The notes under the pieces: model-generated
What the model was told of the DNA's origin: nothing
The model's input: the letters and a program-made list of their open reading frames with translations, nothing else
The model's database searches: none
Shown: positions 18,059 through 63,411 of the stretch, in pieces
How positions within the stretch are numbered: the first letter of the stretch is position 1
Layout of the letters: each line of letters begins with the position of its first letter
Position numbers and translations under genes: made by a program
Assembly (NCBI GenBank): GCA_030427205.1
Contig: JAUHXC010000051.1
Span: 1,336 to 65,335, forward strand
From: a bacterium
GTDB taxonomy: Bacteria > Myxococcota_A > Bradymonadia > UBA7976 > UBA1532
Direction of reading: 5' to 3'
Length of the DNA stretch: 64,000 nt

Positions 18059-18287
18059 GGCATCACCTCCCACCCGGCCGTCGTTCGACGCCGAGCCTGT
18101 CGACTGCAATGGATATCGTCCCCGTTCGCCGACGGGTACGGGCCGCCCGACCGCCAATGTAGACCGATCGGCCGCCGCGGCCCGATCTGGATGCCTTCAG
18201 CGTCCGTCGAACGCAGCGGCCCGTGCCCGACCCGGCGACGCGGCCCCGGTTGTCCCATGCGAGCGGCGGGGGTATGGTGGCGCCGTC

Positions 18288-23459: not shown

Positions 23460-23564
23460 CGGCCCGTGCCCGCCGACGGGCCTTGACCGCGCGCCGCGTC
23501 GGGGGCTACTGCTGCCCCGAAGCGGCCCCCCGCCTTGCGGGCCGCGCCCCACGCGGAGGCGGCC

Positions 23565-26500
23565 ATGCCAATGCCAGCCCTGTCCCGAACGCCCGCCCTC
23601 TTCCGAGCCCTCTCGCTGACCCTGCTGACCGCCGGGCTGGCGGCCTGCGTGCCCACCAGCAGCGGCCGCGGCGGCGGATCGTGCGTCGACGGCGAAGCCG
23701 AGGCCTGCGCCTGCCCCGACGGGACCAGCAGCCTGCGCACCTGCGAAGGCGAGCGCTTCGGGCCGTGCCCCTGCGAAGCCACCGGCGACGACGGCGTCGG
23801 CGATACGGGCGCGCCCGACGCAGATCCGGGCGACGACGGCGGCCGGCCCGACGCGTGCCGGCCCCTCTGCGGCGAGCGGGCCTGCGGCGACGACGGCTGC
23901 GGCGGCGCGTGTGGCACATGTGAAGCCGGCGCCTTCTGCACGCCCGAGGGTCAATGCGCCGCCGAGCCCGAGAGCTGCGGCGACGACACCTGCGACGCCG
24001 ACGAGAACTGCCTCTCGTGCGCCGCCGACTGCGGGTGCGGCCCCGACGAGGTCTGTGATCCGGTCGACGCGACCTGCGGCCCGCCGCCGTGTGAACCCGC
24101 CTGCGACGGCCGCGCCTGCGGCGACGACGGCTGCGGCGGCGAGTGCGGCGCGTGCGAGGCCGGCGAGCGCTGCGCCGACGGCCAATGTGTCGAAGACGAC
24201 CCCTGCCCCGACCGCCCGTGCGACATCCTCTGGGCCGCCCGCTGCACCGACGACGCCACCGGCCGGGTGCTGTGCGTGCCCGACGCCGCCGACGGCTGCC
24301 CCGGCGAGAGCCGACGCATCGCCTGTGATTCCGGCCGTGAATGCGCCGAGGGCGCCTGCGCCGGCGCCACCACCGACGTCGAGATCATGTTCCTGCTCGA
24401 TCGGTCGAGCAGCATGGCCGACGGCCGCTGGAATGCCATCGGTGATGCCATCCAAGGCTTCGCCGCCACCTATGGCATATGGCATCGCATGGGCGTGCGC
24501 ACCTTCCCCGGCGAAGGCTGCGCCGCCGGCCCCGTACCGCCGCTGGTCATCAACGCCGCGGTCGGCGTGCGCACCGTGCTCGCCGCGGGCACCGCCCCCG
24601 GCGATCAGACCCCCATCGCCGACGCCTTCACCGACCTCGCGCCGGCCTTCGGCGACTTCGACGAGGCCCAGATCGTCGTGCTGATCACCGACGGCACCGA
24701 GACCTGCGCCGACAATGACGCGGCGCTGCTCGACGCCATCGACGACCTGCGCCGCCGGGGCATCGATCTGCATGTCATCGGCGTCGGCCCACGCGCCGAC
24801 CGGGAGCTCCTCGGCCGCCTCGCCCAGCGCGCCGGCCGCGAGGCCGACCTGCCCGCCATCGACGACGGCGACGACATGGCCCGCTGGCTCGACGGGCTGC
24901 TCGATCGCTACGACGCGACCCGCTGCGATCACGATGGCATCGCCTGCGACGGCGAGGGCCTCGTCGAGTGCCGCGACCGGCGCGTCGTCGAGGCGCGCAC
25001 CTGCCCCGACCTGTGCGTCGACGGCGAGGGCTGCCTCACCTGCTGGCCGCCCGATACGACCCGCTGCGTCGACGCGCAGCGGCGCGAGGTCTGCGGCGAC
25101 GACGGCGACTGGCAGCCGCCCGAGGCCTGCCCCTACTGCCTGGGCGACGACTGCGTCGAGTGCGAGCCGGGCGCCAGCGAGTGCGTCGACGAGACCCGCC
25201 GGCGGGTCTGCGGCGCCGACGGCCGCTGGCAGCCGCCCGTATTCTGCGCCCACTGCCTCGACGGCGACTGCGTCATCTGCCGCCCCGGCGCGACCCGCTG
25301 CGCGACCTTCGAGCGCCAGGAGACCTGCGGCGCGAACGGCGCCTGGGGCGACGCCGCCGCCTGCGTTCATTGCCTGGGCGATGGCGACTGCGTCGACTGC
25401 CGCCCCGGCGCCGTCGAGTGCGCCGACGACGTGCGGCTGCGCACCTGCGACGACGCGGGCCGCTGGCAAGTCGAGCGATGCGACGCGTGCGTCGACGACG
25501 TCTGCCGCGTCTGCCGACCGGGCGAGACCCGCTGCGTCGATGGCACCAGCGACCAGACGTGCACCGCCGACGGCGCCTGGGGCCCGGCCCGGGAATGCGA
25601 CGCCTGCGCCGACGGCCAGTGCCGCTTCATCGTCGAGGCCGACGACGTGCGCCTCGTCGACGGCGCCCGCCCGTCCGAAGGCCGGGTCGAGGTGCGGCAC
25701 AACGGCGAGTGGGGCCACCTCTGCGGCCGCGACTTCGACCGCCGCGAGGCGCAGGTCATCTGCCGCCAGCTCGGCCTGCCCACCGAGACCGCTCAGCACC
25801 GCTTCAGCGAGCCCTTCGGTCGGCCACCGCAAGGGCAGGTGGCGTGGCTCGACAGCGTCGCGTGCACCGGCGACGAGGCGCGCCTGACCGACTGCGACCT
25901 GCAGCCGTGGCTCATCGACGGCAGCTGCACGATCTACGGCCCGGTCTCGATCACCTGCCTCGCCGGCGAGTGCCGGCCCGGGGACGTGCGCTGCGCCGAC
26001 GACACCCACAGCCAGGCCTGCGGCGAAGACGAGCTCTGGCGCGAGCCCGAAGAGTGCGCCGCCTGCATCCGCGGCGACTTTCTCGCGCAGAACCTCTTCG
26101 CGGGCGAGTGCCGCCCCTGCCGCGCCGGCCAGACCCGCTGCCTCGACGCCGATACGGCGCAGACCTGCGGCGAAGACAACGATTGGGACCCGGCCGCGCG
26201 GGTCGACTGCGCGACCGGCTGCGCCGACGGCGCCTGCGTCGGCGACGGCGAGGTGCGCCTCGTCGACGGGCCCGTGCCCTACGCCGGCCGGGTCGAGATC
26301 CGCCACAACGGCGAGTGGGGCCGCGTCTGCGGCCGCAACTTCGACCCCCGCGAGGGCCGGGTCATCTGCCGTCAGCTCGGCCTGCCCACCGAGACCGCCC
26401 AGCCACGGTTCAGCGACCCCTACGGCCGCGCGCCCGCCGACCAGCCCGCGTGGCTCGACAGCGTGGCCTGCACCGGCGACGAAGAGGCCTACACCGACTG

Positions 26501-27461
26501 CGATGCGCCGCCCTGGCTCGTCGACGGCACCTGCGCGATCTACGGTCAGGTCTCGCTCGCCTGCCTCGAGGGCGAGTGCTTCCCCGGCGATACCCGCTGC
26601 GCCGACGACACCCACGTCGAGGTCTGCGGCGACGACCAGCTGTGGCAAGAGCCTGAAGAGTGCGCCGCCTGCGTCAGCGGCGACTATCTGGCGCAGAACG
26701 TCTTCCGCGGCGAGTGCCGCCCCTGCCGCGCCGGCCAGACCCGCTGCCTCGACGCCGAGCGGGCCCAGACCTGCGGCGAAGAGGACGACTGGAATCCGGA
26801 CGCCATCGTCGACTGCCCCGACGGCTGCGCCGAGGGCGCCTGCGTCGGCGACGGCGAGGTGCGCCTCGTCGACGGCCCCGAGCCCTGGGCCGGGCGGGTC
26901 GAGATCCGCCACAACGGCGAGTGGGGCCGCGTCTGCGGCCGCAACTTCGACCCCCGCGAAGGCCGCGTCATCTGCCGCCAGCTCGGCCTGCCCACCGAGA
27001 CTGCTCAGCAACGCTTCAGCGAGCCCTACGGCCGCGCGCCCGCCGACCAGCCGGCGTGGATCGACAGCGTGGCGTGCCGCGGCGATGAAGAAGCCTATAC
27101 CGACTGCGATACGCCGCCGTGGCTCGTGGACGGCAACTGCGCGATCTACGGCCAGGTCTCGCTCGCCTGCCTCGAAGGCGAGTGCGTGCCGGGCGACGTG
27201 CGCTGCAGCGACGACACCCACATCCAGGCCTGCGGCGACGACCAGCTGTGGCAGGCACCCGAAGAGTGCCCCGCCTGCGTCAGCGGCGACTATCTGGCGC
27301 GCAACGTCTTCGCGGGCGAGTGCCGCCCCTGCCGCGGCGGCCAGACGCGCTGTATCGACGCCGACCGGGTGCAGATCTGCGGCGAAGACAATGACTGGGA
27401 TGCAGATGCCATCATCGACTGCCCCGATGGCTGCGTCGGCGACGCCTGCGTCGGCGGCTGA
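23565..27461 (+). CDS. giant Cys-rich lipoprotein with vWA + EGF-like modules + 3x SRCR domains
   Basis: Lipobox LTAGLAAC. vWA MIDAS DRSSSMADGRW...VVLITDGTE. Repeated C-x-x-C-x-DG-x-C-x-x-C-RPG modules. Three ~105-aa units (VRLVDG..EGRVE(V/I)RHNGEWG.(V/L)CGR.FD.RE..VICRQLGLPTE....W(L/I)DSVAC.GDE...TDCD) fit the SRCR consensus. Confidence 0.8.
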   Translation: MPMPALSRTPALFRALSLTLLTAGLAACVPTSSGRGGGSCVDGEAEACACPDGTSSLRTCEGERFGPCPCEATGDDGVGDTGAPDADPGDDGGRPDACRPLCGERACGDDGCGGACGTCEAGAFCTPEGQCAAEPESCGDDTCDADENCLSCAADCGCGPDEVCDPVDATCGPPPCEPACDGRACGDDGCGGECGACEAGERCADGQCVEDDPCPDRPCDILWAARCTDDATGRVLCVPDAADGCPGESRRIACDSGRECAEGACAGATTDVEIMFLLDRSSSMADGRWNAIGDAIQGFAATYGIWHRMGVRTFPGEGCAAGPVPPLVINAAVGVRTVLAAGTAPGDQTPIADAFTDLAPAFGDFDEAQIVVLITDGTETCADNDAALLDAIDDLRRRGIDLHVIGVGPRADRELLGRLAQRAGREADLPAIDDGDDMARWLDGLLDRYDATRCDHDGIACDGEGLVECRDRRVVEARTCPDLCVDGEGCLTCWPPDTTRCVDAQRREVCGDDGDWQPPEACPYCLGDDCVECEPGASECVDETRRRVCGADGRWQPPVFCAHCLDGDCVICRPGATRCATFERQETCGANGAWGDAAACVHCLGDGDCVDCRPGAVECADDVRLRTCDDAGRWQVERCDACVDDVCRVCRPGETRCVDGTSDQTCTADGAWGPARECDACADGQCRFIVEADDVRLVDGARPSEGRVEVRHNGEWGHLCGRDFDRREAQVICRQLGLPTETAQHRFSEPFGRPPQGQVAWLDSVACTGDEARLTDCDLQPWLIDGSCTIYGPVSITCLAGECRPGDVRCADDTHSQACGEDELWREPEECAACIRGDFLAQNLFAGECRPCRAGQTRCLDADTAQTCGEDNDWDPAARVDCATGCADGACVGDGEVRLVDGPVPYAGRVEIRHNGEWGRVCGRNFDPREGRVICRQLGLPTETAQPRFSDPYGRAPADQPAWLDSVACTGDEEAYTDCDAPPWLVDGTCAIYGQVSLACLEGECFPGDTRCADDTHVEVCGDDQLWQEPEECAACVSGDYLAQNVFRGECRPCRAGQTRCLDAERAQTCGEEDDWNPDAIVDCPDGCAEGACVGDGEVRLVDGPEPWAGRVEIRHNGEWGRVCGRNFDPREGRVICRQLGLPTETAQQRFSEPYGRAPADQPAWIDSVACRGDEEAYTDCDTPPWLVDGNCAIYGQVSLACLEGECVPGDVRCSDDTHIQACGDDQLWQAPEECPACVSGDYLARNVFAGECRPCRGGQTRCIDADRVQICGEDNDWDADAIIDCPDGCVGDACVGG

Positions 27462-27466: not shown

Positions 27467-28168
27467 CTACTCGCCCGGCTTGCCCTCGCCCGGCTTCACC
27501 TCGCTCGCCTTCGCCTCGACCTCACGCACCGCCTCGACCGCCGCCGCCGCCCGCGCGACCCGCGGCGGCGCGTTGGGGTGGGACCGCACCCGCTCGCCGG
27601 TATCGGTCACCGCGAACGGGACGAGGTCGCTGGGCTTGCCCGGCGTCGGCAGCAGCGGCTTCGCCCGCCACTCGCCCATGATCCAGATCGCGCAGGGCTT
27701 CTCGGTCTGCGCGCCGCACGCCGCGCGGATGCGATCGGCCAGGGAGATGCCCAGCCGGCTGTCATCCAGCGCCAGCGCCAAGGCATCGGGGCGTTTGCCG
27801 CGCGCGCCGGCCGCCAGCGGACCGCCCAGCACGGTGGCGTGCTCGACCCCGCCCAGCGGCGAGCGGGTGATGCCCACCGGCAGCCGCACCCGCGTACCCG
27901 GATCGAGGCCGTCGAGCCACTTGAGCACCAGCGTCCGGTTGGAGACGTCGGGGCCGTCGATCCAGATCGTCGGCGGCTGCGGGCGCTTGTTGCGCGGCCG
28001 GACCGCGGTGGAGACCCGGTGCTCGGCGCCGGGGCCGATGGCGTCTTTCGGCATCTCGAAGCTCCCGGGCTTGGCCATGGCCGGCGTGGATGCCATGGCA
28101 GTCATACCAGCGATAGCACCGATGGCATACAACCACCGATGACCCTTGCGATAGCTCCGATGGCTCAT
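27467..28168 (-). CDS. secreted hypothetical protein
   Basis: Signal peptide (WLYAIGAIAGMTAMASTPAMA). The ATG overlaps the upstream stop (ATGA). Confidence 0.5.
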   Translation of the reverse strand: MSHRSYRKGHRWLYAIGAIAGMTAMASTPAMAKPGSFEMPKDAIGPGAEHRVSTAVRPRNKRPQPPTIWIDGPDVSNRTLVLKWLDGLDPGTRVRLPVGITRSPLGGVEHATVLGGPLAAGARGKRPDALALALDDSRLGISLADRIRAACGAQTEKPCAIWIMGEWRAKPLLPTPGKPSDLVPFAVTDTGERVRSHPNAPPRVARAAAAVEAVREVEAKASEVKPGEGKPGE

Positions 28169-28983
28169 GGCACCTCCTTGCGGGCGATCACGAAGACATA
28201 GCCATAATACTGGCCGTAGCGATCGTAGATGTCCGCCTCGGCGATGCTCTCATCCAACGCCGCCGTCAGCGCGGGGCTGCACGGCTGGGCGCGCAGCGTG
28301 GCGACGCGGGCGCGGATCGGGTCGTAGTAGTTCGACCAGTCGCTCGCGGGCAGGATGAAGTCATGAATGACATACCATCCGGCCGCCGCCGTACGCTTGC
28401 GGGTCGTCTCGACGTCGCCGAGGGCCGGATACTCCGCTTCGAGCATCGCGCGCAGGTCCGTAGGCACGTCGGCGGTGAGCCAGACCAACTCGGAGAAGGC
28501 CAGCCGCGCGTCGGGTGAAGCGATGGCATGCCAGCGGCGCAACGCCTTCTCGACGCCGACGCTGTAGGCCGCGCCCTCGCTCCAGATGAGATCCGCCGGG
28601 CCCGGGTGGTCGAGCATCGAGCCATGCCACGCGGTCACGCGGTCGCTGACGTTCGCGGCGGCGGCGCGCTTCTCCAGCTGGTCGAGGAAGGGCCGATGCA
28701 GATCGACGCCGACGACCGCCGCGCCGGGCAGCGCATTGGCCAGCGTGACCGTCGGCTGGCCCGGGCCGCAGCCGAAGTCGATGACGCGGGGCTTGTCGGG
28801 CAGCGGGCCGCACGCGGCGAGGGCCCGCCGGGTCGTGGCCGCGCTGCCGGGCCCCTCGCGGTCGAGGTCGCGGTGCACCTGGAAGAACTCGGGGCTCACG
28901 GGCGGCTCCGGGGGTGGTTCTAGGGTCACGGTAGGATGAGCAGGGGCGCGGTTCAAGGTGAGTTCGGCCTGTCGAGGAACCAT
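28165..28983 (-). CDS. class I SAM-dependent methyltransferase
   Basis: Motif I VIDFGCGPGQPT. Motif II/post-I (AVVGVDL) is spaced as expected. Confidence 0.65.
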   Translation of the reverse strand: MVPRQAELTLNRAPAHPTVTLEPPPEPPVSPEFFQVHRDLDREGPGSAATTRRALAACGPLPDKPRVIDFGCGPGQPTVTLANALPGAAVVGVDLHRPFLDQLEKRAAAANVSDRVTAWHGSMLDHPGPADLIWSEGAAYSVGVEKALRRWHAIASPDARLAFSELVWLTADVPTDLRAMLEAEYPALGDVETTRKRTAAAGWYVIHDFILPASDWSNYYDPIRARVATLRAQPCSPALTAALDESIAEADIYDRYGQYYGYVFVIARKEVP

Positions 28984-29921
28984 GTTCTCGCCGGCCGCAA
29001 GCCGATGTCGCTGAAGCCGTAAGCGGAAGCTGCGGCCCGGCGATATGCTACGCGGCAGCGCCCGGCGCCCGAATACCACCCGCAGCCGCGAGAGACGCGA
29101 GCGTCTGAGAGATCCCGAAGCAATGGGGCATCACTCTGATGAGGCTTGATACCCTCCTCCGGGCTCTTGCTCTCGGTCCACTCCCAGACATTGCCCAACA
29201 TGTCGTAGAGCTTCCACGGGCTGGCCGCCCGACCGTCTGGAAGTCCATGGCTCACCGGGTGCGTCTCATCCGCGTTCGCCCCAAACCAGGCGATGTCGCT
29301 CAGTTCGGCCCCGACCTGGGCAGCATAGCTCGCCGACATAGTGCCCGACCTAGCCGCATACTCCCATTCCGCTTCACTCGGCAGGCGATAGCCAGAACAA
29401 CCTTCGAGCGACTCGATTGCATCACATGTGAAGCGGTCGTGGGCACCATCGTGGGGATCACCCACGCAACCTTCCAGGCGATAGCATGATGCCAACCCCT
29501 CCCGCGCCGAGAGCCGGTTGAGGTACAGCAGCGCCGCGTACCACGTCACCCGCTCCACCGGCAGCCTGTCACCGCGAAAGAGTGACGGGTTGCCGCCCAT
29601 CACCGCCCGCCACTGCGCTTGGGTCACCTCGGTGCGCCCGATCGCGAACGTGCGCCGCCCGGGCTCTCCGATACGCACCCGATGTCGGTGCTCATTGTTG
29701 TATCGCCCCGGCTCGTCCTCCGGCGAGCCCATCCAGAACTCACCCGGCGGCAGCACGACCATCTCCGGCCGCAGCGGCTGCGTGGCATCGAGCGGCGGCG
29801 GATCGGCGGCTTTCACCCGCCCACGCAGCCCCACCGCGGCCAGCGGCAGCGCGACGCCGAGCGCGACGAGCACCACACCGCCGGCCAGCGCCCGGCGCGC
29901 CGGGATGACGCGATCGCTCAT
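28953..29921 (-). CDS. FGE-sulfatase (SUMF1/formylglycine-generating-enzyme fold) domain protein, membrane-anchored
   Basis: An N-terminal TM/signal anchor is followed by the hallmark motifs YRLPSEAEWEYAARSG, YDMLGNVWEWTE and RGCGW. Confidence 0.7.
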   Translation of the reverse strand: MSDRVIPARRALAGGVVLVALGVALPLAAVGLRGRVKAADPPPLDATQPLRPEMVVLPPGEFWMGSPEDEPGRYNNEHRHRVRIGEPGRRTFAIGRTEVTQAQWRAVMGGNPSLFRGDRLPVERVTWYAALLYLNRLSAREGLASCYRLEGCVGDPHDGAHDRFTCDAIESLEGCSGYRLPSEAEWEYAARSGTMSASYAAQVGAELSDIAWFGANADETHPVSHGLPDGRAASPWKLYDMLGNVWEWTESKSPEEGIKPHQSDAPLLRDLSDARVSRGCGWYSGAGRCRVAYRRAAASAYGFSDIGLRPARTWFLDRPNSP

Positions 29922-30209
29922 GGCATCGCTCGCAGAGAGCCAGCGAAGTCATACGCAGTGAAGCAGTCTGAGGATGTCGGTCGCGCCATCAGCGGATATC
30001 GCTCCTACCGGCTCCCGGTACGCAAACGCAGGCTCACCCGTCCTCCGCCGGCTGCGGTTACACGACGCGCTCGGCGCCGTCCGGGCTCACGCCGAGCCCC
30101 TCGGATGTCCTGGTGCCATGACCGTGGATTATCGATCGGATCGCATGGGCACCACGCGGCGGGGCTCACAGGGAGAACCCGATCAAGATTGGGCCAAGGA
30201 GCCAGAGGT

Positions 30210-33200
30210 TCAGGGGACAAGAGGCCAGGTTCTCGCCGGGCGCAGCCCGAGGGAGCGGTTGCGGTAGGCCGGGCGGACGGCGTAGCGATTCGCTGCGCGG
30301 CAGAACCCCGCCGTCGAGTTCCACCCGCAGCCGCGGGAGACACGGTCGCGCGGGAGGGGGGCTTCGACGGGGGTTGCTTCAGAGCGGTCGGTGATATCGT
30401 TCTCGTAAGCATCCTGAACCCATTCGTAGACGTTGCCGATGATGTCGTACAGGCCCCAGTCGTTGGGCTGGCGTTCGCCCTTCACCGGCGCCTGCGCGCC
30501 CCCCGAGCCGTCGTATACCGCGATGTCTGCCAGCGCGCCATATCGCGCCCCGGTCGTGCCGGCGCGGGCCGCGTACTCCCACTCGGCCTCGGTCGGCAGG
30601 CGGTAACCCGCGCAGTCGAGGCCGGCGAACGTCACCGCCCCGCAGCGGAAGTTATCCGCGTTGGTGCAGGTGAACCACCCGTCCTGCCGGCCAATGTCGC
30701 AGTTCCCGGAGCCGAGCTCGCCAACACAGTTCAGAACCCGATAGCAAGGCTCCAGCCCCTCAGCCTTAGACAGCGCGTTCACGTAGGCCACCGCCTCGAA
30801 CCAGTTGACGCTGTCCACCGGGTAGTCGGCGCCGTCACGGCTCGGGCGGCTCTTCATCAACGCCGTCCACTGCGCCTCGGTCACCTCCGTCTCGGCCAGC
30901 CAGAACCCGCGGGTGAGCGTGACCGCGTGCTGGCCTTCGTTGTCGAAGCGCCCCTCTTCGTCCAGGGGGCTGCCCATCATGAAACGCCCCGGCCGAACCG
31001 GCAGCATCGCCGGCCGGTTGTCGGTGGCTGCCAGGACCCGCGCGGCTTCGGCCCCGGCGTCCAGGGCAGCGTCGACCGCAGGCTCAGCGTCGACCAGCGG
31101 CGCGGGCGCGCCACCGTCCACCGGGCCGCCATCCGGCGGCCCGGCGTCGGGCAGCCGCAGGATGCTCGTCGGCGCCGCCACCGCCGCCGCCTCGGCCGTC
31201 AGCGGTCGCGCCTGCCCGACCTCCAGCGTCCAGAGGTCATCGCCGGCCGCCTGCGGGACCTGCGCCCCGCCCCATACGCCATCGAGCAACCACAAGCCCA
31301 GCCACAGCACAGCCGCGGCCACCACAGCCCAGGCCAGCGGCGCGCGCACGCTGCCCCGATCGAAGCCGCCCGCCGAGACCACCTCGCCCGGCGCGCCCCG
31401 CCCCAGCGCGTGGTCCAGGTGCAGCGCGGTCGCGCCGTCGATCGTGGCGCGGCGCACCCGGTCGAAGCCCTCCAGCATCTGCCGGGCGTCGGCCGCGAGC
31501 GCGGTCCCCAGGAACGCGTCCACCCGCGCGACCGCGCCCGCGCTCGGCGCCCGCCGCAGGTCGTACATCGCCTGCCGCAGCCGATCGGCCTCGGCTTCGC
31601 CCGGCGCGCGCGGCCCGCCTTGTCGTGCGGCGAGGGAGGCCGCCTGAGCCTTGGCGATCCGCGCGTCGATCGCAGCCAGGTCACCGATGCCATCCAGCGC
31701 GGCCCACGACGCGAGCAAGTCTTCCTCCGCCGGCACCAGCCGCGACCGCTCGGCCAGCCCCGGCCCGCGCTCGCCGCGGGCGGCGCGCATGCCTTCGAAG
31801 GCATCGATGACTGCCTGCACATGCCATCGCTCGGTGAACACGGCCTTCACCGCGGGCAGCGCCTCGCGCAGAGACTCCGCCCCGTCCCACTCGGCCTCGG
31901 GCACCAGCGCGCAGGCCGCGGCCCACTCGGCCAGCGCGGCGCGATACCCAGGCGTGTCCTCATCGGGCAGCCCCGGCCAGCGCGGCGCGCGCCCCGGCGG
32001 ATCGCCGCCCAGACGCCGGGCGGCGGCGACCAGCCCCTCCGGCGTCATCGGGCAGCGCGCCAGCCCGTCGCTCTCGATCAGGTGGGCATAGCGCGCCTCA
32101 GTCGCCCCACGCCGCGCGGGCGGCCGCGGATCGGGATCGACCCAGACCCGGTCGGGCCACGCCCGCAGCAGCTCGGTCCAGCGCGCCTCGCCCTCGCGGG
32201 CGTCGGTCAGCAGCCGATGGGACAGGATCAGCAGCGGCCCGTCACCGAACCGCCGCGCCACTTGAGCCAAGGTATGCCGCCGCCCGTCTTCGTCGGTGAG
32301 CCAGTCGGGCCGCCGCGAGAACTCGAACGCGCGCAGCGGCACGTGCCGCTCACGCCAGAAGCGCACCAGCCGGTTGAACCCGCCCAGCCAGACGTGCTCG
32401 CCGCTGCCCTGGTCGACGAAGATCGTCAGCGGCTGGTCGATCCGCCGCACCTGCGGCACTACCCGCAGCTGGCCCGCGGCCCGCGCCGTGGCTTCGGCGG
32501 TGGCCTCGGCGTCGATCCGCTGGCCCGGCCGCGCCTGGAAGATCTGCCCCAAGACATAAGCCGACGCGTCGGCCCCGGCCGGCGGCGCGCGCCACTCGGT
32601 CGGCGCGCGGCGGGTCGTATGGGCCCGCTTCTCCGCGGCCAGCCGCCGCCGATCGGCCTCGGCAGCACGCGCCACGGCCTCGCGCTGCTCGATCTCGAGC
32701 GCGCGGCGGTTGCGATAGCGATCGAGCAGCACGGCGCCCATCGCGATGAGCGCCGCGCCGAAGAGCCACGCCAGCCAGTCGCCCAGATCGAAGACCGCCG
32801 GCGCCTGCGCGACGGGCACATGCTGCGCGCGCGGGTTGGGCACCGGCTCCAGCGTCGCGGCGCGCGATGTGGCCGCGTCTGGCATACCGGCGTCGGTCGA
32901 TGCCATCACCGAGGCATCCGCCGATGACTCATCGGATGGCATCTGCGATGGTTCAGAGATGACAAAACCGATGACGACCCCCACCGCGAGCAGCGCGGCG
33001 AAGACCCATCCGAGTGATGACTTCGATGACTCCGATGACTTCGCCAGAGGTCCTTCGATGCCATCCGCCGCGGCGCGCTGCGTGGGCTCATACCGCGCGA
33101 TCGCCGCCCGGATCCGCTCGACCTCGTCCCGATCGCGCCCGAGCGCCGCCGCGAGGCCGTCGGCCCGCGCCTCCAGATCCTCTGCGGTCTGCGCCGGCCA

Positions 33201-33302
33201 GCCCTGCCACAAACGGTGGGCCTTCAAGCGGGCGGCGACCCCCAGCGGGGCCACCTCGCGGTGGATCCGGTCGAGCAGCGGGTCGAGATCGGTCGCGGCC
33301 AT
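30210..33302 (-). CDS. large 3-TM protein: cytoplasmic degenerate vWA-like region + extracytoplasmic FGE-sulfatase domain
   Basis: TM helices lie near aa 98, 185 and 680. The region between TM2 and TM3 contains LTIFVDQGSGEHVW (MIDAS-like DxSxS). The C-terminal 330 aa carry YRLPTEAEWEYAARAG, YDIIGNVYEWVQD and RGCGW. The start lies 2 nt after the MoxR stop. Confidence 0.7.
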   Translation of the reverse strand: MAATDLDPLLDRIHREVAPLGVAARLKAHRLWQGWPAQTAEDLEARADGLAAALGRDRDEVERIRAAIARYEPTQRAAADGIEGPLAKSSESSKSSLGWVFAALLAVGVVIGFVISEPSQMPSDESSADASVMASTDAGMPDAATSRAATLEPVPNPRAQHVPVAQAPAVFDLGDWLAWLFGAALIAMGAVLLDRYRNRRALEIEQREAVARAAEADRRRLAAEKRAHTTRRAPTEWRAPPAGADASAYVLGQIFQARPGQRIDAEATAEATARAAGQLRVVPQVRRIDQPLTIFVDQGSGEHVWLGGFNRLVRFWRERHVPLRAFEFSRRPDWLTDEDGRRHTLAQVARRFGDGPLLILSHRLLTDAREGEARWTELLRAWPDRVWVDPDPRPPARRGATEARYAHLIESDGLARCPMTPEGLVAAARRLGGDPPGRAPRWPGLPDEDTPGYRAALAEWAAACALVPEAEWDGAESLREALPAVKAVFTERWHVQAVIDAFEGMRAARGERGPGLAERSRLVPAEEDLLASWAALDGIGDLAAIDARIAKAQAASLAARQGGPRAPGEAEADRLRQAMYDLRRAPSAGAVARVDAFLGTALAADARQMLEGFDRVRRATIDGATALHLDHALGRGAPGEVVSAGGFDRGSVRAPLAWAVVAAAVLWLGLWLLDGVWGGAQVPQAAGDDLWTLEVGQARPLTAEAAAVAAPTSILRLPDAGPPDGGPVDGGAPAPLVDAEPAVDAALDAGAEAARVLAATDNRPAMLPVRPGRFMMGSPLDEEGRFDNEGQHAVTLTRGFWLAETEVTEAQWTALMKSRPSRDGADYPVDSVNWFEAVAYVNALSKAEGLEPCYRVLNCVGELGSGNCDIGRQDGWFTCTNADNFRCGAVTFAGLDCAGYRLPTEAEWEYAARAGTTGARYGALADIAVYDGSGGAQAPVKGERQPNDWGLYDIIGNVYEWVQDAYENDITDRSEATPVEAPLPRDRVSRGCGWNSTAGFCRAANRYAVRPAYRNRSLGLRPARTWPLVP

Positions 33303-33304
33303 CG

Positions 33305-34363
33305 TCAGGTGCGCGCCGTGACCCGGTCCCAGTCGGCCTTCAGCTTGAGCAGGCAGCCCAGCCCCGGCAGCTCATCCCAGCCGAGGCTGGCCGACAGCTC
33401 GAAGCCGCCGTCCTTGGGCCGCACCGCCTTGTCGAACGCGGCCAAGCGCGCCTCGGCCTTGGGGTAGACGCCCGGCGTGATCAGCGTCTCGAACCAGCCG
33501 ATCAGCTCCGAGGTCGACGGCGCCTTGAGCAAGACCGCGGCGTAGCGCTGGCGCAGCGCCAGGAAAGCCTTCACCGCCGATGGGATGTGCCTGTGATGGG
33601 TCTTCGCGAAGCGCGCCTTCAGGATGCGATCGAGCCGCTCGCGATCGGGGAAGCCGACGTGATGGAAGACGCAGCGGCGCAAGAAGGCGTCGGGCAGCTG
33701 CCGCTCTTCGTTGCTGGTGATGATGATCACCGGCTTCTCGTGCGACGCCGGGTCGGGGTGACCCAGCTGCCGCCGCAATGGGATGCCATGGCTGATGACA
33801 TCGCCCCGCGCGGGGCCGATCGCGCCCCGCGCCTCGCCGTCGAGCTCCTTGATCTCGAAGCGCCCCTGATCCAGCTCACGCAGCAGGTCGTTGGGCAGGT
33901 CCCGCGGCGCCTTGTCGATCTCGTCGATGAGCACCACCCGCCGCGACCGCTCGGGCAGCCCCATCTGGGCCAGCGCCACGCCGAGCGGCATCAGCTCGAT
34001 GTACAGCCGGGCGTCCGCCGCCCGCGCGGCCCCCGCCTCGCCGCGGTTGTGCGCGTCGCCGAAGCGGCGCAGGGCGTCGTAGTGATAGAGCAGGTCGCGG
34101 GCCTGGGTATCGCTGCGCACGTAGCACTCGAGCAGCCCGTCGGCGTCCCGCGGCCGCCAGTCGGCGCGGTTGCCGGCCAGCTTGCGGGCGATGGCGAACG
34201 CAAAGTCGGTCTTGCCGCAGCCCGGCTCGCCGGTGAGCAGCAGCGGCATGCCCAGGGTGATGGCCGCCTTCAGCGCCGAGACCAGCCGCCGGTCGGCTAC
34301 GTACTCCGCGGCGGGGTCGCGCCCGTAGAAGGGCGCGGCGAAGGTGGCGATGTCGATGCTCAA
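33305..34363 (-). CDS. MoxR-family AAA+ ATPase
   Basis: Walker A LLTGEPGCGKT. Walker B VVLIDEIDKA. Sensor-1 IIITSNE. The likely start is a TTG preceded by GGAGG, 13 nt after the upstream stop. The listed ATG at 34459 overlaps the upstream gene. Confidence 0.8.
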   Translation of the reverse strand: MSIDIATFAAPFYGRDPAAEYVADRRLVSALKAAITLGMPLLLTGEPGCGKTDFAFAIARKLAGNRADWRPRDADGLLECYVRSDTQARDLLYHYDALRRFGDAHNRGEAGAARAADARLYIELMPLGVALAQMGLPERSRRVVLIDEIDKAPRDLPNDLLRELDQGRFEIKELDGEARGAIGPARGDVISHGIPLRRQLGHPDPASHEKPVIIITSNEERQLPDAFLRRCVFHHVGFPDRERLDRILKARFAKTHHRHIPSAVKAFLALRQRYAAVLLKAPSTSELIGWFETLITPGVYPKAEARLAAFDKAVRPKDGGFELSASLGWDELPGLGCLLKLKADWDRVTART

Positions 34364-34376
34364 TGGGCCTCCTGCG

Positions 34377-35993
34377 TCACGGCCGTCGGCGGCCGTCGAG
34401 GACCGCCTGGATGGCCCGGGCGAGCCGATCGAAGCAGCGCCCGCCGCGGTCGAGTTCATCCCACAGGCGCTTCAACCGCAAGCGATCGAGCTGCGAGACC
34501 CGCTCGCGCACGAGAAAAGGCAGCACGTCGTCGGCCCAATCGGGGAATTTGACCTGCTTGAGCCGGCGCACCGTCCACGGCTGGCCCTCGCCCAGCGCCT
34601 CGAAGGCGGCGAGGCGCGCGTTGAAGGCAGCGTCGGGCCGGTCATACGAGACCGCCAGCATGATGTGCAGCCGATGATAGCCGACCACGTCGCCCAGCAG
34701 CCGCGGCGCCTCGCGCTCGACGAAGTCGACGACCAGCGCCCGGTCGTCCTCTTCCCAGCCAGGGCGGATCGGCGCGTCGAAGACCACCACCAGCCGCGAC
34801 TCGTCGCAGGCGCCGGCGAGGATGTCGACGGTGGTCCCGCTGCCCCGGGGGAACTGCGCGGTCGCCCGCGACGACCAGTCTTCGGCGCTGGTCGGCGCCG
34901 ATCCGAAGCCCGAGGTCAGGTAGGGCACGCGCTTGACGGTCAGCGCCTCGGCGAGCCCGTTGTTCAGGTCGCGCTGCATGCGATCGACGAAGTGATGCAG
35001 CGCCTGGGTCGCGTCGCCGTGCAGGATGATGAGCCCCGATCGGTCCTCGCGCACCAGATCGCGCAGGCGATACCACTGCGACTCGCGGTTGAGCTGAATG
35101 GCGTGGCCCAGGGCGCCCTGCCCCTCGTCGACGTCGGCGATGGCGGCGCCCGATTCATTGGCCACCAGCGCGTCGAGGCCGTCGGCGCTGCTCGCCTGCA
35201 CGAAGGGGCCGTCGGCGGCGATCACGACCGCCACGACGGCGCCGCCGATCATCACCGGCGCGCCGATCGGCGGCGGCTCCGCGGGCGGGCAGGCCACGGC
35301 GAGCAGCATGACCCGGTCATAGCCCCGGGCGGCGTCGGGGTCGATCACCCGCGCCGCGAAGCCTGCGACGGCGGCGCTCGCGCCGGGCTCGACGGGCGTC
35401 GCGCTCACCGGCACCGTCGGCGCGCCGTAGCGCGGCGCCTCGAGCACCAGCGTAGCCCAGCCGGCGCCGGCGTTCGAGCGATCGCGATCGGGCACCGCGG
35501 CCGAGGTCTGGCCGTCGGGCGTGATGACCGCGCAGTTGACGCGACCGCGCTCGCCGTCCATGGCCAGCGCGGCGGCGGTCAGCACCCGCGCCGGCCCGAT
35601 GAAAATCCCCTGCCCCGCGCGCCGCTCGCGGGCGTCGTCGCTGCGCACGTCCACGGTCGGTGGCTCTGCCGGCGACGCGTCGGCCCGCGCCCGGACCAGC
35701 AGCGCCCAGTGACCGAACGCGTCGGCGCCGTCCACGTGGCGCACCTGACGCCCGGCGCGCTCTAGGTACAGCGCCAGCGGCGGGCGATCGAGGCCGTCGA
35801 TGCGCGAGACCTCGGCCAGCGTGCCGACGTCGAGGTCGAGCTGGTCGGTCTTGCGCTTCGCGTCGGGGATGGCGTGGATCAGATCCGCGGGCAGGCCCTG
35901 CAGGCGCACGTCGCGCGCGTGCCCCAAGAGGCCGGTCTCGGCGCACAGGTCGATGATGCGATCGTGCTCTTCGGGCCACAGCAGCCGCGGCAT
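34377..35993 (-). CDS. NTPase-system-associated protein: N-terminal helical (effector-associated-like) domain + degenerate trypsin-like region
   Basis: GC3 is high. The N-terminus reads MPRLLWPEEHDRIIDLCAETGLLGHARDVRLQGLPADLIHAIPD. The middle has GIFIGPARVLTAAALA (a TAAHC-like segment lacking the His) and NESGAAI (GDSGGP-like). Confidence 0.55.
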   Translation of the reverse strand: MPRLLWPEEHDRIIDLCAETGLLGHARDVRLQGLPADLIHAIPDAKRKTDQLDLDVGTLAEVSRIDGLDRPPLALYLERAGRQVRHVDGADAFGHWALLVRARADASPAEPPTVDVRSDDARERRAGQGIFIGPARVLTAAALAMDGERGRVNCAVITPDGQTSAAVPDRDRSNAGAGWATLVLEAPRYGAPTVPVSATPVEPGASAAVAGFAARVIDPDAARGYDRVMLLAVACPPAEPPPIGAPVMIGGAVVAVVIAADGPFVQASSADGLDALVANESGAAIADVDEGQGALGHAIQLNRESQWYRLRDLVREDRSGLIILHGDATQALHHFVDRMQRDLNNGLAEALTVKRVPYLTSGFGSAPTSAEDWSSRATAQFPRGSGTTVDILAGACDESRLVVVFDAPIRPGWEEDDRALVVDFVEREAPRLLGDVVGYHRLHIMLAVSYDRPDAAFNARLAAFEALGEGQPWTVRRLKQVKFPDWADDVLPFLVRERVSQLDRLRLKRLWDELDRGGRCFDRLARAIQAVLDGRRRP

Positions 35994-36620: not shown

Positions 36621-37613
36621 ATGCGTCCCCTCACCCGCCGCCGCTTCATCGGCACCTCGGCCGCGTTGGCCGCCACCGCCACCCTCGGCCCGGCCTGGGC
36701 CGATGACGTCGAGTTCAGGCTCAAGGTCGCCACGGTCGCGCCGCCCGGCACCCCGTGGGCCAAGCAGCTGCGCAAGCTCGAGAAGCAGGTGCGCGAGCGC
36801 TCCCGCGGCCGCTTGCAGCCCAAGATCCACCTCGGCGGATCGCTCGGCGACGAGAAGACCAGCGCCGGGCGCTCGGGCGACGACGCCGGCTGGGCCGGCA
36901 GCCCGTCGGGGCTCTCCGATTCGCTGCCCGAGATCAACGCCTACGAGCTGCCCTTCCTCTTCGCCGACGAGCGCCGCGCGCGGCGGGCGACCGACGGCGC
37001 GAAGATCCAGACCGACGCGCTGCTGCGCCGCGCGCGCCGCAAGCTGATCTTCACCGGCGAGCTGGGCTTTCACGCGCTGGGCACGCCCGGCCCCATCCGC
37101 AGCCCGGCCGACCTGAGCGGCCTGCGCATCGCGACGCCGCCCGGCAGCCCGCGCGGTCGCATCTGGCGCGCGCTGGGCGCCCGGCCGCAGACGGTGGCGT
37201 CCAAAGACACCGCCGATGCCTTGCGCCGCGGGCGGGTCGATGGCTTCAGCGCGCCGCCGCTCTTCGCGCTGGGCGCCGGCTGGGTGCGCGCGGGCATGCA
37301 CATCACGCTGCTGCCGATGATCTACAGCCCGCTGTTCGTCCTGGTGAGCGACTCGGCTTTCGACCGGCTCTCCGAGGCCGACCGCGCCGCGCTGACGGGC
37401 GACGCCGACGCGCGGGCGCGGGAGATGCGCGAGGCGGTCGATCGGGCCAATCGCGAAGCAGCGGCTAGGATCAGCGCGGCAGGCGCGACGTTCGCCCGCG
37501 CCGACGCCGCGCTGAAGGCCGGGCTCGCCGAGCGCACCGCGAACGTCACCGCCGAGTTCCGCCGCGGCACCTCGGCCGAGGGCCGGGCCCTGCTCGACCG
37601 CCTGCAGCGCTGA
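36621..37613 (+). CDS. TRAP-transporter DctP-like solute-binding protein (orphan, Tat signal)
   Basis: GGAGG 5 nt upstream. Twin-arginine signal MRPLTRRRFIGTSAALAATATLGPAWA. DctP-like core (FRLKVATVAPPGTPW ... LPFLF). No DctQ/M permease genes nearby. Confidence 0.6.
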   Translation: MRPLTRRRFIGTSAALAATATLGPAWADDVEFRLKVATVAPPGTPWAKQLRKLEKQVRERSRGRLQPKIHLGGSLGDEKTSAGRSGDDAGWAGSPSGLSDSLPEINAYELPFLFADERRARRATDGAKIQTDALLRRARRKLIFTGELGFHALGTPGPIRSPADLSGLRIATPPGSPRGRIWRALGARPQTVASKDTADALRRGRVDGFSAPPLFALGAGWVRAGMHITLLPMIYSPLFVLVSDSAFDRLSEADRAALTGDADARAREMREAVDRANREAAARISAAGATFARADAALKAGLAERTANVTAEFRRGTSAEGRALLDRLQR

Positions 37614-37742: not shown

Positions 37743-38912
37743 ATGAACGAGATGCGTCCATGGTCTGGATTCGACGCCCTGGTCGAAGGGCTCGTCGACC
37801 TCGAAGCCCGTGCACGGGAGCTCGCGAGCCGCTCGGTCGATGAAATACTGACAGTCCGCAACTGGCTCGTGGGCGCGTGGATCGTCGGGTTCGAGCAGGA
37901 GGGCCGTGACCGGGCTCAGTACGGCGAAGGCCTTCTGCGCGAACTCGCGACAACCTTCAAAGCGCGAGGTGTAAAAGGTTTTTCGGCACGAAACCTGCGC
38001 AATTATCGCCAGCTCGCCCTCACCTGGCCGACGCTCGCGGCGCGTCGTGGTGCGGGCGGTGAACTCGGCCTCCCTGCTGACATTCGGCAGACGCTGTCTG
38101 CCAAATTCGTCCCCGCGGTTCTGCCCCGCACCGAGCTCCTCCCGTGGCAGAACGACGCGTGGATGGTCCGCCTGCGCCGAGAGCTGTCGTTCTCCCACTT
38201 GCTCGAGCTGTCGCGCATCGACAGCCCTGTCGCCCGGGCGTTCTACGAGGTCCAGGCGCTGAGCAATCGATGGAGCGTGCGCGAGCTGCGCCGGCAGCGA
38301 GACGCGATGCTCTTCGAGCGGGTCGGGCTCTCGCGGGACACGGAAGCCGTCCTGGCCCTGGCCAACGAGGGCCGCCTGATCGATACACCCACGACCAATA
38401 TCCGCGATCCCTACGTCTTGGAGTTCCTCGACCTGCCCGAGCGCGACGCGTGGTCCGAATCCGACCTCGAGACCGCGCTGGTCGACAACCTGCAGGCCTT
38501 CCTGCTCGAACTCGGCGGCGACTTCGCGTTCCTCGGCCGCCAATACCGAATCACTGTCGGCGGCCGGCACCACTACATCGACCTGCTGTTCTTCCACCGA
38601 CGGCTGCGCTGCCTCGTCGCGATCGATCTCAAGCTCGGCGCCTTCGGCTACGAGGACGCCGGGCAGATGAACTTCTACCTGAGCTTCTTGCGAGAGAACG
38701 TCTCGCTCGAAGACGAGAACCCGCCGGTGGGCCTGGTGCTCTGCGCCGACAAAGACGCCGAAGAGGTGCACTACGCCACCGGCAGCCTGGATCATCAGGT
38801 CTTCGTATCGCGCTATCTCACCCGGCTGCCGACCGAGAGCCAGCTGCGCTCGTGGCTCGCCGAAGAGCGGGAGTCCCTCGCCCGCCGTCACGGGCTGGAC
38901 GAGGCGACCTGA
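37743..38912 (+). CDS. YhcG-family (DUF1016) PDDEXK nuclease
   Basis: The N-terminal YhcG-N-like segment reads NWLVGAWIVGFEQEGRDRAQYGEGLLRELA. The C-terminal PDDEXK core reads HHYIDLLFFHRRLRCLVAIDLKLGAFGYEDAGQMNFYL ... LVLCADKDAEEVHYA. Confidence 0.7.
   Translation: MNEMRPWSGFDALVEGLVDLEARARELASRSVDEILTVRNWLVGAWIVGFEQEGRDRAQYGEGLLRELATTFKARGVKGFSARNLRNYRQLALTWPTLAARRGAGGELGLPADIRQTLSAKFVPAVLPRTELLPWQNDAWMVRLRRELSFSHLLELSRIDSPVARAFYEVQALSNRWSVRELRRQRDAMLFERVGLSRDTEAVLALANEGRLIDTPTTNIRDPYVLEFLDLPERDAWSESDLETALVDNLQAFLLELGGDFAFLGRQYRITVGGRHHYIDLLFFHRRLRCLVAIDLKLGAFGYEDAGQMNFYLSFLRENVSLEDENPPVGLVLCADKDAEEVHYATGSLDHQVFVSRYLTRLPTESQLRSWLAEERESLARRHGLDEAT
38069..38112. repeat. ~45-bp palindromic repeat, copy 2 (inside the YhcG coding sequence)
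   Basis: CGGCCTCC..TGACATTCGGCAGACGCTGTCTGCCAAATT. Direct-repeat orientation relative to copy 1. Confidence 0.7.
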
Positions 38913-43961: not shown

Positions 43962-44893
43962 CAGAACGACATGCCGGTCAGCAGGTGCAGCTCGAGCGCG
44001 AAGTACAGCTCCGACTCGGTCGCCGCGGCGAAGAGCGGCACGGCCACCAGCACCTTGTGCGAGACGAAGACGCCCGAGCCGAAGTAGAGATCGGCCCCCA
44101 GCCCGGCCAGGAAGCCATAGCGCGCGCGGTCGATCTGCATCGCCGGCAGGCGGATGTCTTCGAGGTTGTTGATCTCGCGATCCGACAGGCTGCCGGCGAC
44201 CAGGGCCTCGATGGTCTCGGTGAAGGTGAAGCCGTCGAACGCGCCGGGATACAGCAGATAGCGCAGGTCGACGTGGCTCTGCAGCACGAGGTGCGCCGAG
44301 GGGAACCACGAGGGGAAGGCCGTCACGACGCCCTCGGCCAGCGGATAGGCCAGCGTCAGGTCGAGCTCTATGCGCTCGGGGCGCGCCGGCTGGCGATACG
44401 GGGTCAGCGCCAGCCGCTCGGTGCTCTCGCTGCCCGAGACCCAGACGTAGGCCGCTTCGAGGCCCAGCAGCAGCCCGCCGACGGGGAAACGCCCGAAGAC
44501 GCCCGCCCGCAGGCTGTCGAAGTTGTTCAGCTCGGCGGGCAGCGAGCCGGAGAGGCCCACCTCGGCGGTGGCCTTGCGCCAGTCGTAGCGCAGGCGCTTC
44601 GAAGTGCGGCCGATGGCGCTCTCCATCAGCGTATCGAAGGGCGTGCGGTGGCGCTCGATGGCGGTGTCGGGCAGCCGGGGCAGTGATGGCACTTCGGATG
44701 GCTCCGATGGCTCATCAGATACCTCCGATGGCACCTCCGATGACTCCGATGGCACATCCGGTGACTCCGATGGCACACCCGATGACTCCGGTGGCACCTC
44801 CGATGACTCAGCGGGCGCCTGCGCGACCGCCGGGCCCATCCAGAGCACGAGCGCGGCCAGCGCGGCCACGGCGCGGCACAGCTCACGGATCAT
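43961..44893 (-). CDS. outer-membrane beta-barrel-like protein with an acidic (SSEVP)n repeat
   Basis: Signal peptide with an AQA cleavage site. A Ser/Glu/Pro repeat follows. The C-terminus ...LLTGMSF ends in Phe, as is typical of OMPs. Confidence 0.55.
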   Translation of the reverse strand: MIRELCRAVAALAALVLWMGPAVAQAPAESSEVPPESSGVPSESPDVPSESSEVPSEVSDEPSEPSEVPSLPRLPDTAIERHRTPFDTLMESAIGRTSKRLRYDWRKATAEVGLSGSLPAELNNFDSLRAGVFGRFPVGGLLLGLEAAYVWVSGSESTERLALTPYRQPARPERIELDLTLAYPLAEGVVTAFPSWFPSAHLVLQSHVDLRYLLYPGAFDGFTFTETIEALVAGSLSDREINNLEDIRLPAMQIDRARYGFLAGLGADLYFGSGVFVSHKVLVAVPLFAAATESELYFALELHLLTGMSF

Positions 44894-63275: not shown

Positions 63276-63411
63276 GCGCGCTCCCGGTTCGCCGGCCGGC
63301 CGGCGGTCTGGTGTGAAGCGGCCGGCGTCGTCCCCGCGCCCCGGCTCGCGCAGGCAGCCTATGCGCTGCCGGCGCCCGCGGCAAGCGGGTGATGATCCGG
63401 CGCGCGGCGTA

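Follow-up and report, generated by a model that had tools for sequence, protein, structure and literature searches.

A probable iSTAND-type MoxR–vWA ternary system with a membrane-spanning lectin-fold component in a genome of the Bradymonadia

Ternary systems of the iSTAND type, consisting of a MoxR ATPase, a vWA protein and an iSTAND (inactive STAND) protein, were defined by Kaur et al. 2020 (PMC7159879), and the MoxR–vWA ternary class was also described in Kaur et al. 2021 (PMC8195603). In the iSTAND type, the vWA components have a CoxE-like helical N-domain, carry transmembrane (TM) segments in ∼28% of cases and most commonly end in an FGE-sulfatase (FGS) domain (∼22%), while the iSTAND proteins bear an N-terminal EAD, trypsin, caspase or TIR domain; the systems are concentrated in Proteobacteria, Bacteroidota and Cyanobacteria (PMC7159879). 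Here, we describe a block of six minus-strand genes (27467–35993) in a 64-kb stretch of the bacterial contig JAUHXC010000051.1 (positions 1,336 to 65,335; assembly GCA_030427205.1; Myxococcota_A, Bradymonadia), henceforth referred to as the window. The first four genes likely constitute an iSTAND-type MoxR–vWA ternary conflict (threat-sensing) system with a membrane-spanning lectin-fold vWA component, signalling along the lines set out below. That they belong to the iSTAND class and are devoid of a diversity-generating retroelement (DGR) is highly probable.

FGS/CLec (C-type-lectin-fold) domains have been proposed as sensors of invaders that are often diversified by DGRs and are sometimes periplasmic (PMC8195603; Doré et al. 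2024, bioRxiv 10.1101/2023.09.22.558884). Loci composed of a MoxR gene, a long target and a short CLec-only target were reported by Doré et al. (PNAS 2024; bioRxiv 10.1101/2023.09.22.558884). The original prediction for this block linked it to NTPase-dependent 'ternary' conflict systems, in agreement with the iSTAND-type domain content and gene order found here. It also regarded the exact combination as uncharacterised, a view that has to be given up: the locus matches both the iSTAND subtype (PMC7159879) and the two-target loci of Doré et al. The combination has already been described by comparative genomics, and the present locus adds a member to a known class that consists of predictions.

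Gene content of the block

Because the GC content of the window is 72%, open frames alone carry little weight. The six open reading frames (ORFs), all present as originally called, show the codon-position GC of real genes (GC3 0.77–0.95, GC2 ∼0.5), and public records already contain predicted proteins, from a 65.7-kb contig, that are identical to five of the six products. The region is also present on a 12-kb Logan contig from run ERR3428543. Genes 1 and 2 are separated by 13 nt containing AGGAGG ahead of a TTG start, genes 2 and 3 by 2 nt, and genes 5 and 6 overlap in an ATGA, all as read before; the intergenic gap between genes 3 and 4 and the overlap between genes 4 and 5 exist as well, with their sizes corrected from 289 to 288 bp and from 30 to 31 nt, respectively. 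The block is bounded by plus-strand genes, one converging (∼23487–27461) and one diverging (36621–37613). Rfam, tRNA and promoter scans gave no match. The 288-bp spacer contained no terminator-like site, and the three terminator-like matches all lie within coding sequence, their number being near chance expectation. A PADLOC scan of the six proteins recognised no known defence system. Pfam profile searches, the check suggested together with the original prediction, found FGE-sulfatase domains in both expected proteins, AAA_5 in the ATPase and a class I methyltransferase. The features of the block are as follows, in the order of transcription.

34377–35993, minus strand: gene 1, 538 aa, putative third ternary component with EAD5, predicted dead trypsin-like and iSTAND domains
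35664–35993, minus strand: EAD5 adaptor domain, residues ∼1–110, assigned from library matches to this stretch
35199–35615, minus strand: trypsin-like domain, residues ∼127–265, with His replaced by A142, Asp by G178 and Ser by I243 (alignment to homolog P0006)
34389–35111, minus strand: putative iSTAND domain, residues ∼295–535, P-loop position LIILHGDATQAL, without GK[ST]
33305–34363, minus strand: gene 2, MoxR-type AAA+ ATPase, 352 aa, TTG start, ribosome-binding site AGGAGG (Pfam AAA_5)
30210–33302, minus strand: gene 3, putative vWA component, 1030 aa, consisting of a helical N-terminus, TM1, TM2, a divergent CoxE-type vWA domain, a linker, TM3, an acidic linker and an FGS domain
32121–32516, minus strand: putative divergent CoxE-type vWA core, residues ∼263–394, with DQGSGEH at the position of the metal-ion-dependent adhesion site (MIDAS) and LLILSH at the strand-4 position (via homolog L058)
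31284–31343, minus strand: TM3, between the vWA and FGS domains (hydropathy scan)
30231–31013, minus strand: FGS (FGE-sulfatase/C-type-lectin-fold) domain, residues 764–1024, predicted periplasmic (Pfam PF03781, E 8e-37)
30225–30344, minus strand: segment equivalent to a DGR variable repeat, RVSRGCGW...GLRPARTW (repeat between the FGS genes)
29922–30209, minus strand: spacer of 288 bp, position of the DGR cassette in relatives
28953–29921, minus strand: gene 4, short FGS paralog, 322 aa, counterpart of the second DGR target of relatives
28165–28983, minus strand: gene 5, class I S-adenosylmethionine (SAM) methyltransferase, 272 aa (Pfam Methyltransf_25)
27467–28168, minus strand: gene 6, protein with signal peptide, 233 aa

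The product of gene 2 matches Pfam AAA_5 (E 1.2e-9) and has intact Walker A (GEPGCGKT) and Walker B (VVLIDEIDKA) motifs, as had been read from the sequence at the outset. This ATPase served as the anchor of a survey in which one genome per species was scanned. Out of 519 MoxR relatives in species-representative genomes, 80 loci (henceforth the related loci) were kept, and these have their gene context in common with the window MoxR gene; ORF clustering covered the window and 26 related loci. The closest MoxR loci (44–51% identity) are found in Nannocystis, Sorangium, Haliangium and other Myxococcota, in Thermoanaerobaculia, in Saprospiraceae and in Gammaproteobacteria, and the conserved gene order spans Myxococcota, Acidobacteriota, Bacteroidota and Proteobacteria.

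For the 538-aa product of gene 1, an exhaustive search of 1.8 billion representative proteins returned 66 relatives, the two nearest at 51% and 39% identity, and revealed three separable parts; metagenome scans with the protein and with its alignment found no relative. Residues ∼1–110 match the N-termini of otherwise unrelated proteins. Ten library proteins that match only this stretch were tested, and in all of them Pfam detects an N-terminal EAD5 domain (E 4e-4 to 5e-17, and ≤6e-9 in nine), combined with SAVED-TIR, CHAT or CTD10. The EAD5 alignment has a common pattern, GLP...DQL...PPLA.WL.NA, which we judged convincing. No second EAD5 gene is present in the 64-kb window, nor within 10 kb in L011, the sole related locus with EAD5.

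The second part was identified through the homolog P0006, which aligns to window residues 127–534 (BLASTP E 1e-40), scores 35.8 bits with Pfam Trypsin_2, over the gathering score, and retains His, Asp and Ser. All three catalytic residues are replaced in the window protein and in its two closest homologs, and the domain is predicted to be catalytically dead. An EAD combined with a degenerate trypsin-like partner had been proposed before, and both domains were found. TAAALA indeed marks the true histidine motif, as judged by alignment to the active homolog; NESGAAI does not hold as the serine motif, the serine column falling instead at I243, within 'PPIGAPV'.

The third part, which the earlier reading overlooked, would be an inactive STAND domain. 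Pfam iSTAND (PF19995) scores 21.4 bits (E 3.5e-4) in the window protein, under its gathering score of 24. The window protein and 53 others encoded just upstream of MoxR make up a set of 54, of which 30 match PF19995 (best E 5e-21). Across proteins at the iSTAND position, the N-termini interchange between TIR, CHAT, EAD1/2/5/9/11, kinase, SIR2 and calcineurin-like domains. The P-loop lysine of the STAND domain is lost, with LIILHGDATQAL in its place. By transitive homology, the third component encoded by gene 1 is predicted to be an inactive STAND protein.

A homolog of the middle region of the 1030-aa protein follows MoxR in 21 related loci, usually within a few nucleotides of the MoxR stop. 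Pfam yields no vWA match in the window protein, the C-terminal FGS domain being its sole Pfam domain. In homolog L058, VWA_CoxE scores 32.1 bits (gathering score 26.4; E 1e-7) over a stretch aligned to window residues ∼263–340, and L058 matches the window with a tblastn E of 2e-9; only three to four family members reach Pfam significance for vWA. Through L058, and hence transitively, the middle region appears to be a very divergent CoxE-type vWA domain. Homolog searches with the full 1030-aa protein, with its middle region and with a 19-sequence profile of the latter gave one irrelevant match or none, and a profile of the vWA region retrieved coiled-coil noise only from PDB sequences. A Foldseek search with a model of this region returned generic alpha/beta matches only (E > 0.03), which were disregarded.

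IFVDQGSGE had been read as a vWA-like MIDAS. The sequence is present and provides the strand-1 Asp (IFVDQGSGEH); the motif is not the canonical DxSxS, which corrects the earlier reading, and the vWA call comes by way of the homolog. For strand 4, the comparison was made with 'SDG', which we take to be the consensus of CoxE-type proteins; by sequence alignment, the corresponding position reads 'SH' in the window and 'SR' in the clade. In place of DxSxS, the clade conserves the motif D-x-E-x-G-x-H-P, of which the window (32394–32423) has the variant DQGSGEH, and this motif could be an alternative metal or peptide site. Some vWA domains of ternary systems do not have the metal-site aspartates at the ends of strand 1 and strand 4 (PMC7159879).

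A hydropathy scan placed hydrophobic helices at residues 97–115, 176–193 and 654–673 of the 1030-aa protein, in line with the three TM helices originally predicted, and found the same three-TM layout in 14 of 19 homologs. Among 18 aligned homologs, 14 carry an FGS domain, and 11 of these have a helix matching TM3, which is absent from L011, L058 and L080. The third helix of distant loci lies 400–600 residues before the FGS domain. PKD domains, which are typically extracellular, occur among the Pfam matches in a wider set of distant relatives. The cytoplasmic ATPase has to reach the vWA domain, and a single helix parts the latter from the FGS domain, which is therefore predicted to be periplasmic. 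Behind its TM helices, the Nannocystis vWA homolog (L001:10997-14773) has no FGS domain; a PEGA domain and a TPR-like stretch take its place, a variant that agrees with the envelope-associated variants mentioned by Kaur et al.

The domain behind TM3 and that of gene 4 both belong to the FGS family, consistent with the external FGE-sulfatase domain and the second, membrane-anchored paralog of the original prediction; in gene 4, the domain covers residues 52–312 (Pfam E 1.2e-31) behind an N-terminal anchor at residues 11–32. In 11 related loci, a short FGS homolog (280–370 aa) is encoded close to the vWA gene; 10 of these 11 homologs have an N-terminal hydrophobic segment according to the hydropathy scan. 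The best match of the gene 3 FGS domain among solved structures is Treponema denticola TvpA (PDB 2Y3C; E 1.4e-27 over ∼235 residues), ahead of FGE itself (E 2.5e-10). The alignment runs through the RG.GW...G[LF]R segment, corresponding to the C-terminal RGGSW...GFR segment of TvpA that forms its variable ligand-binding face. The window domain follows a TM helix and is joined to a vWA/MoxR signalling module; TvpA, in contrast, is a stand-alone lipoprotein that its own DGR diversifies.

The catalytic, copper-binding cysteine pair of FGE we take to be CxxxxC, C336/C341 in the human enzyme. Retention of this pair, proposed earlier as a check, was not observed: both paralogs read GW[NY]S..G.C, with Ser at the position of the first Cys and the second Cys only kept (register from the TvpA alignment). 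NCBIfam enzyme matches of the FGS domains (PvdO, EgtB) are weak and far under their cut-offs. The FGS domain is not a formylglycine-generating enzyme, and the earlier proposal of a ligand-binding input rather than formylglycine generation agrees with TvpA as the closest solved relative and with the broken cysteine pair.

As an observation apart, the short FGS gene (28953–29921) has a GC3 of 0.77, compared with 0.88–0.95 in its neighbours, and the stretch at 28–30 kb has the lowest GC of the region (0.683); the low GC3 could reflect later acquisition or relaxed selection.

The SAM methyltransferase and the secreted protein of the original prediction were also found. The 272-aa product of gene 5 is a generic class I enzyme (Pfam Methyltransf_25) for which no NCBIfam family reaches its cut-off. 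It matches PADLOC mad2 (E 9e-17) at profile positions 281–417 of 492, that is, in the generic methyltransferase domain only. The PADLOC profile mad8 hits the MoxR ATPase weakly and in the P-loop only (E 0.003), and PADLOC found no other MADS component among the six proteins; an identification as MADS was rejected on these grounds. The 233-aa product of gene 6 has a signal peptide (...TPAMA/KPGS) and matches nothing in Pfam, PADLOC or NCBIfam. Neighbourhood conservation, named earlier as a check, divides the block. Genes 1–4 are kept in related loci, and neither the methyltransferase nor the secreted protein has a homolog in any of the 80, including the 11 that keep a second FGS gene. The six genes as one system, as first envisaged, are not borne out by this comparison. 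Genes 5 and 6 are translationally coupled to gene 4 and therefore probably co-expressed with it; they are lineage-specific passengers, not conserved parts of the system.

Retroelement-bearing relatives and described systems

A subset of the related loci has HRDC, bAvd and reverse-transcriptase (RT) genes between the FGS genes, as determined by ORF clustering and Pfam (HRDC, bAvd, RVT_1). This HRDC-Avd-RT cassette occurs in six loci (L006, L008, L012, L019, L021 and L042), between two FGS genes or after a single one. Comparison of these loci with themselves yielded ten template/variable repeat pairs, in which between 8 of 8 and 20 of 21 mismatches fall at template adenines; the template repeats are rich in AAC codons. 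The variable repeats occupy the 3' ends of both kinds of FGS gene, the one fused to vWA and the short anchored one, and the two FGS genes are therefore two targets of the DGR. Both carry a variable repeat in L006, L012, L019 and L042; one was detected in L008 and in L021. A DGR thus sits in relatives at the position of the 288-bp gap, which the earlier reading overlooked and which explains the presence of two FGS genes. Through these six loci, the iSTAND ternary class is connected with the DGR loci of Doré et al., who did not name iSTAND.

In the window, profiles built from the relatives' proteins found no RT, Avd or HRDC in the 64 kb, and neither the relatives' template repeats nor a search for a third copy of the variable repeat-like segment revealed a template repeat there. 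This segment, with copies at 30225–30344 and 28980–29099, is the only long DNA repeat common to both FGS genes (71% identity) and is homologous to the true variable repeats of the six DGR-bearing loci. Two ideas were discarded. The spacer shows no sign of being a decayed cassette, no remnant of a DGR gene or template repeat being detected in it. Nor are the FGS genes of the window a live template/variable pair, given their 71% identity, the many third-position differences and the absence of RT, Avd, HRDC and a third copy. Barring a DGR that acts in trans from another place in the genome, this copy of the system is DGR-less. L003, L004, L005, L009 and L011, all but L003 from Myxococcota, are likewise without a DGR in the DNA that was fetched. 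A Polyangiaceae locus (L015:9641-10468) has HRDC between its FGS genes, with no Avd or RT before the contig end, and looks like an intermediate in DGR loss.

Compared with the iSTAND ternary systems (PMC7159879), the window has the same order of iSTAND protein, MoxR and vWA protein, a MoxR ATPase without VMAP-type extensions, a vWA protein with helical N-terminal domain, TM segments and C-terminal FGS domain, and an iSTAND N-terminus with an EAD and a peptidase-like domain; the spread over Proteobacteria in the broad sense and Bacteroidota agrees as well. It differs in that the trypsin-like domain is without His, Asp and Ser, the vWA metal site is noncanonical and a DGR is missing. Moreover, the window clade regularly has a fourth component, a second anchored FGS gene, a feature that we did not find stated in PMC7159879. 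A VMAP-type ternary system does not fit, as no VMAP family is among the Pfam matches and the third protein of the window is of the iSTAND type.

The 'clade 5A' type loci of Doré et al. resemble the window in having MoxR directly upstream of a long target whose N-terminal region is without a Pfam-detectable vWA domain, a short CLec-only target, and trypsin, TIR or caspase genes nearby. Some of their CLec domains are predicted to be periplasmic, and the authors propose CLec as the sensor. In contrast to the window, which has no RT, Avd, HRDC or template repeat, these loci carry an active DGR; the variable repeat-like segments of the window show 71% identity only, and the substitutions between them are not of the adenine type.

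Two further systems share the MoxR–vWA pair. In the Esr pathway of Schaalia odontolytica (preprint of September 2026, PMC13622651), such a pair works with a sequence-variable surface sensor, converting an extracellular threat into an intracellular response. That pathway belongs to Actinomycetota and differs in its beta-propeller sensor on a filamentous surface protein, in its output via a Ser/Thr kinase and an FHA protein to Esx secretion, and in having no iSTAND, EAD5 or FGS domain. As an experimental precedent it supports, by analogy, a reading with the sensor outside. CoxD–CoxE and RavA–ViaA also consist of an AAA+ MoxR ATPase adjoining a CoxE-type vWA partner; unlike the window genes, they mature metallo-enzymes or respiratory complexes and have no iSTAND/EAD protein, TM-anchored lectin domain or DGR.

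Genomic surroundings

The converging neighbour (∼23487–27461, plus strand; start also given as 23565) ends 5 nt from the stop of gene 6. It encodes a predicted lipoprotein of ∼1300 aa with the lipobox ...LTAGLAAC and 10% cysteine, in which three SRCR domains (Pfam E 2.7e-67) accompany a VWA domain of canonical type whose DxSxS metal site is intact. Its SRCR and Cys-rich module makes up tandem repeats of 606 nt at 25631–27142. SRCR (scavenger receptor cysteine-rich) domains typically belong to the innate immunity of animals and are uncommon among bacteria. The 26 related loci that were clustered with the window contain no homolog of this lipoprotein.

Upstream of the block, the genes at 37743–38912 (plus), 36621–37613 (plus) and 38931–40637 (minus) encode, respectively, a YhcG/DUF1016 PDDEXK nuclease, a TRAP-transporter DctP protein with a twin-arginine (TAT) signal and a protein whose MYXO-CTERM sorting signal speaks for an origin from Myxococcota. 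On the other side, 19336–21867 (minus) encodes an 843-aa protein with a patatin-like phospholipase stretch and 16295–18157 (minus) a beta-lactamase-family protein. In-frame tandem repeats were observed at three further places in the window: a 33-nt unit in at least 13 copies at 63340–63966, inside the ORF 61809–63863 (minus), 21-nt units at 44685–44831 and 15-nt units at 53535–53639.

Signalling model and alternative explanations

In the model that we favour, the periplasmic FGS domains would act as receptors for a ligand arriving at the envelope, for instance a phage particle or a surface molecule, whether foreign or kin. TM3 and the helical linker would pass the binding event on to the vWA domain in the cytoplasm, and the MoxR ATPase would remodel the vWA protein with ATP, thereby setting the activation threshold. 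The iSTAND protein would serve as a scaffold, its EAD5 domain recruiting, like-with-like, an EAD5-tagged effector encoded elsewhere in the genome, and the dead trypsin domain would be a binding or decoy module, not a protease. Receptor specificity would be fixed in the genome, unless a DGR elsewhere acts in trans. For the direction of signalling in this model, with FGS as the sensor, we see roughly even chances.

Several points weigh against this interpretation. The window 1030-aa protein has no Pfam vWA score of any kind, and its metal site is noncanonical, with DQGSGEH at the MIDAS position and SH replacing SDG. The 538-aa protein stays under the Pfam threshold for iSTAND. Single-sequence AlphaFold2 models had a predicted local distance difference test (pLDDT) score of 42 for the vWA region and of 34 for the 538-aa protein and thus confirmed neither fold. 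The topology was derived from a crude hydropathy scan alone. With no effector or second EAD5 gene in the window, the output of the system has no candidate there; the ternary-system model allows remote effector partners (PMC7159879), for which reason the absence of an EAD5 partner in the window is not disqualifying. We found no experiment on any iSTAND system in the literature. The coupling of genes 4, 5 and 6 by the 31-nt and ATGA overlaps leaves room for a lineage-specific functional link of genes 5 and 6. Finally, the original authors propose the opposite direction, in which iSTAND senses and FGS is the effector (PMC7159879).

This reversed operation of the same system, the model of Kaur et al., is the alternative that fares best. 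The iSTAND protein would sense an intracellular invader, for instance nucleic acid, the MoxR–vWA pair would set the threshold and the FGS effectors would bind the invader and immobilise or exclude it at the envelope. The lack of a separate effector gene in the window speaks for it. On the other hand, no release step is needed for the FGS domains to be exposed in the periplasm, proteolytic release is not available since the trypsin partner is predicted to be dead, and EAD5 implies recruitment of a further effector. Doré et al. moreover argue that CLec is the sensor, and the Esr pathway feeds a surface sensor into MoxR–vWA (PMC13622651). Taken together, we consider the reversed direction unlikely.

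Whether all six genes form one lineage-specific unit has to be weighed next. Genes 5 and 6 would then cooperate with the FGS paralog, for instance in modifying or masking a self ligand so that auto-activation is prevented, or would provide the output. The translational coupling of the three downstream genes on the strand of the core, the spacer free of terminator-like sites and the match of the methyltransferase to the methyltransferase part of PADLOC mad2 (E 9e-17) are in favour of such a unit. The complete absence of genes 5 and 6 from the 80 related loci, even from the 11 with a second FGS gene, argues against it, as do the generic nature of the mad2 match, with no other MADS component present, and the lack of a specific NCBIfam family; a six-gene unit is accordingly improbable.

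A housekeeping MoxR–vWA chaperone like CoxD–CoxE or RavA–ViaA, maturing or inserting periplasmic FGE-family enzymes and without a role in conflict, is very hard to sustain. In its favour, MoxR–vWA pairs are known as classical maturation chaperones, the vWA domain here belongs to the CoxE type, and enzymes such as PvdO and EgtB are found in the FGE family (weak NCBIfam matches). Against it, the upstream partner combines iSTAND and EAD5 where relatives carry TIR, CHAT, caspase or SIR2, DGR hypermutation of both FGS domains in relatives is ill-suited to a conserved active site, and the closest structure is TvpA, not an enzyme, with NCBIfam enzyme matches far under cut-offs.

Going beyond the model with the sensor outside, a more specific scenario may be sketched, which we offer with little confidence. 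The window system might have had DGR-hypermutated ancestors and now be a lectin-type transmembrane receptor whose specificity is fixed, an 'adaptive' receptor that was frozen to an 'innate' one. In a social predatory myxobacterium it might sense a periplasmic cue from phage, prey or non-kin cells and signal via MoxR–vWA–iSTAND to EAD5-tagged effectors of death or dormancy, with the methyltransferase and the secreted protein as a lineage-specific addition that, for instance, masks a self ligand.

Of the immune-like systems predicted in multicellular and social bacteria, MoxR–vWA ternary systems are some of the largest. The simple conserved topology, with ATPase, vWA domain and scaffold inside and a lectin-fold domain outside across one TM helix, makes the direction of signalling directly testable. 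In addition, a DGR-less copy with fixed lectin sequences, beside relatives in which these residues continue to be hypermutated, provides a natural comparison between fixed and diversifying receptors.

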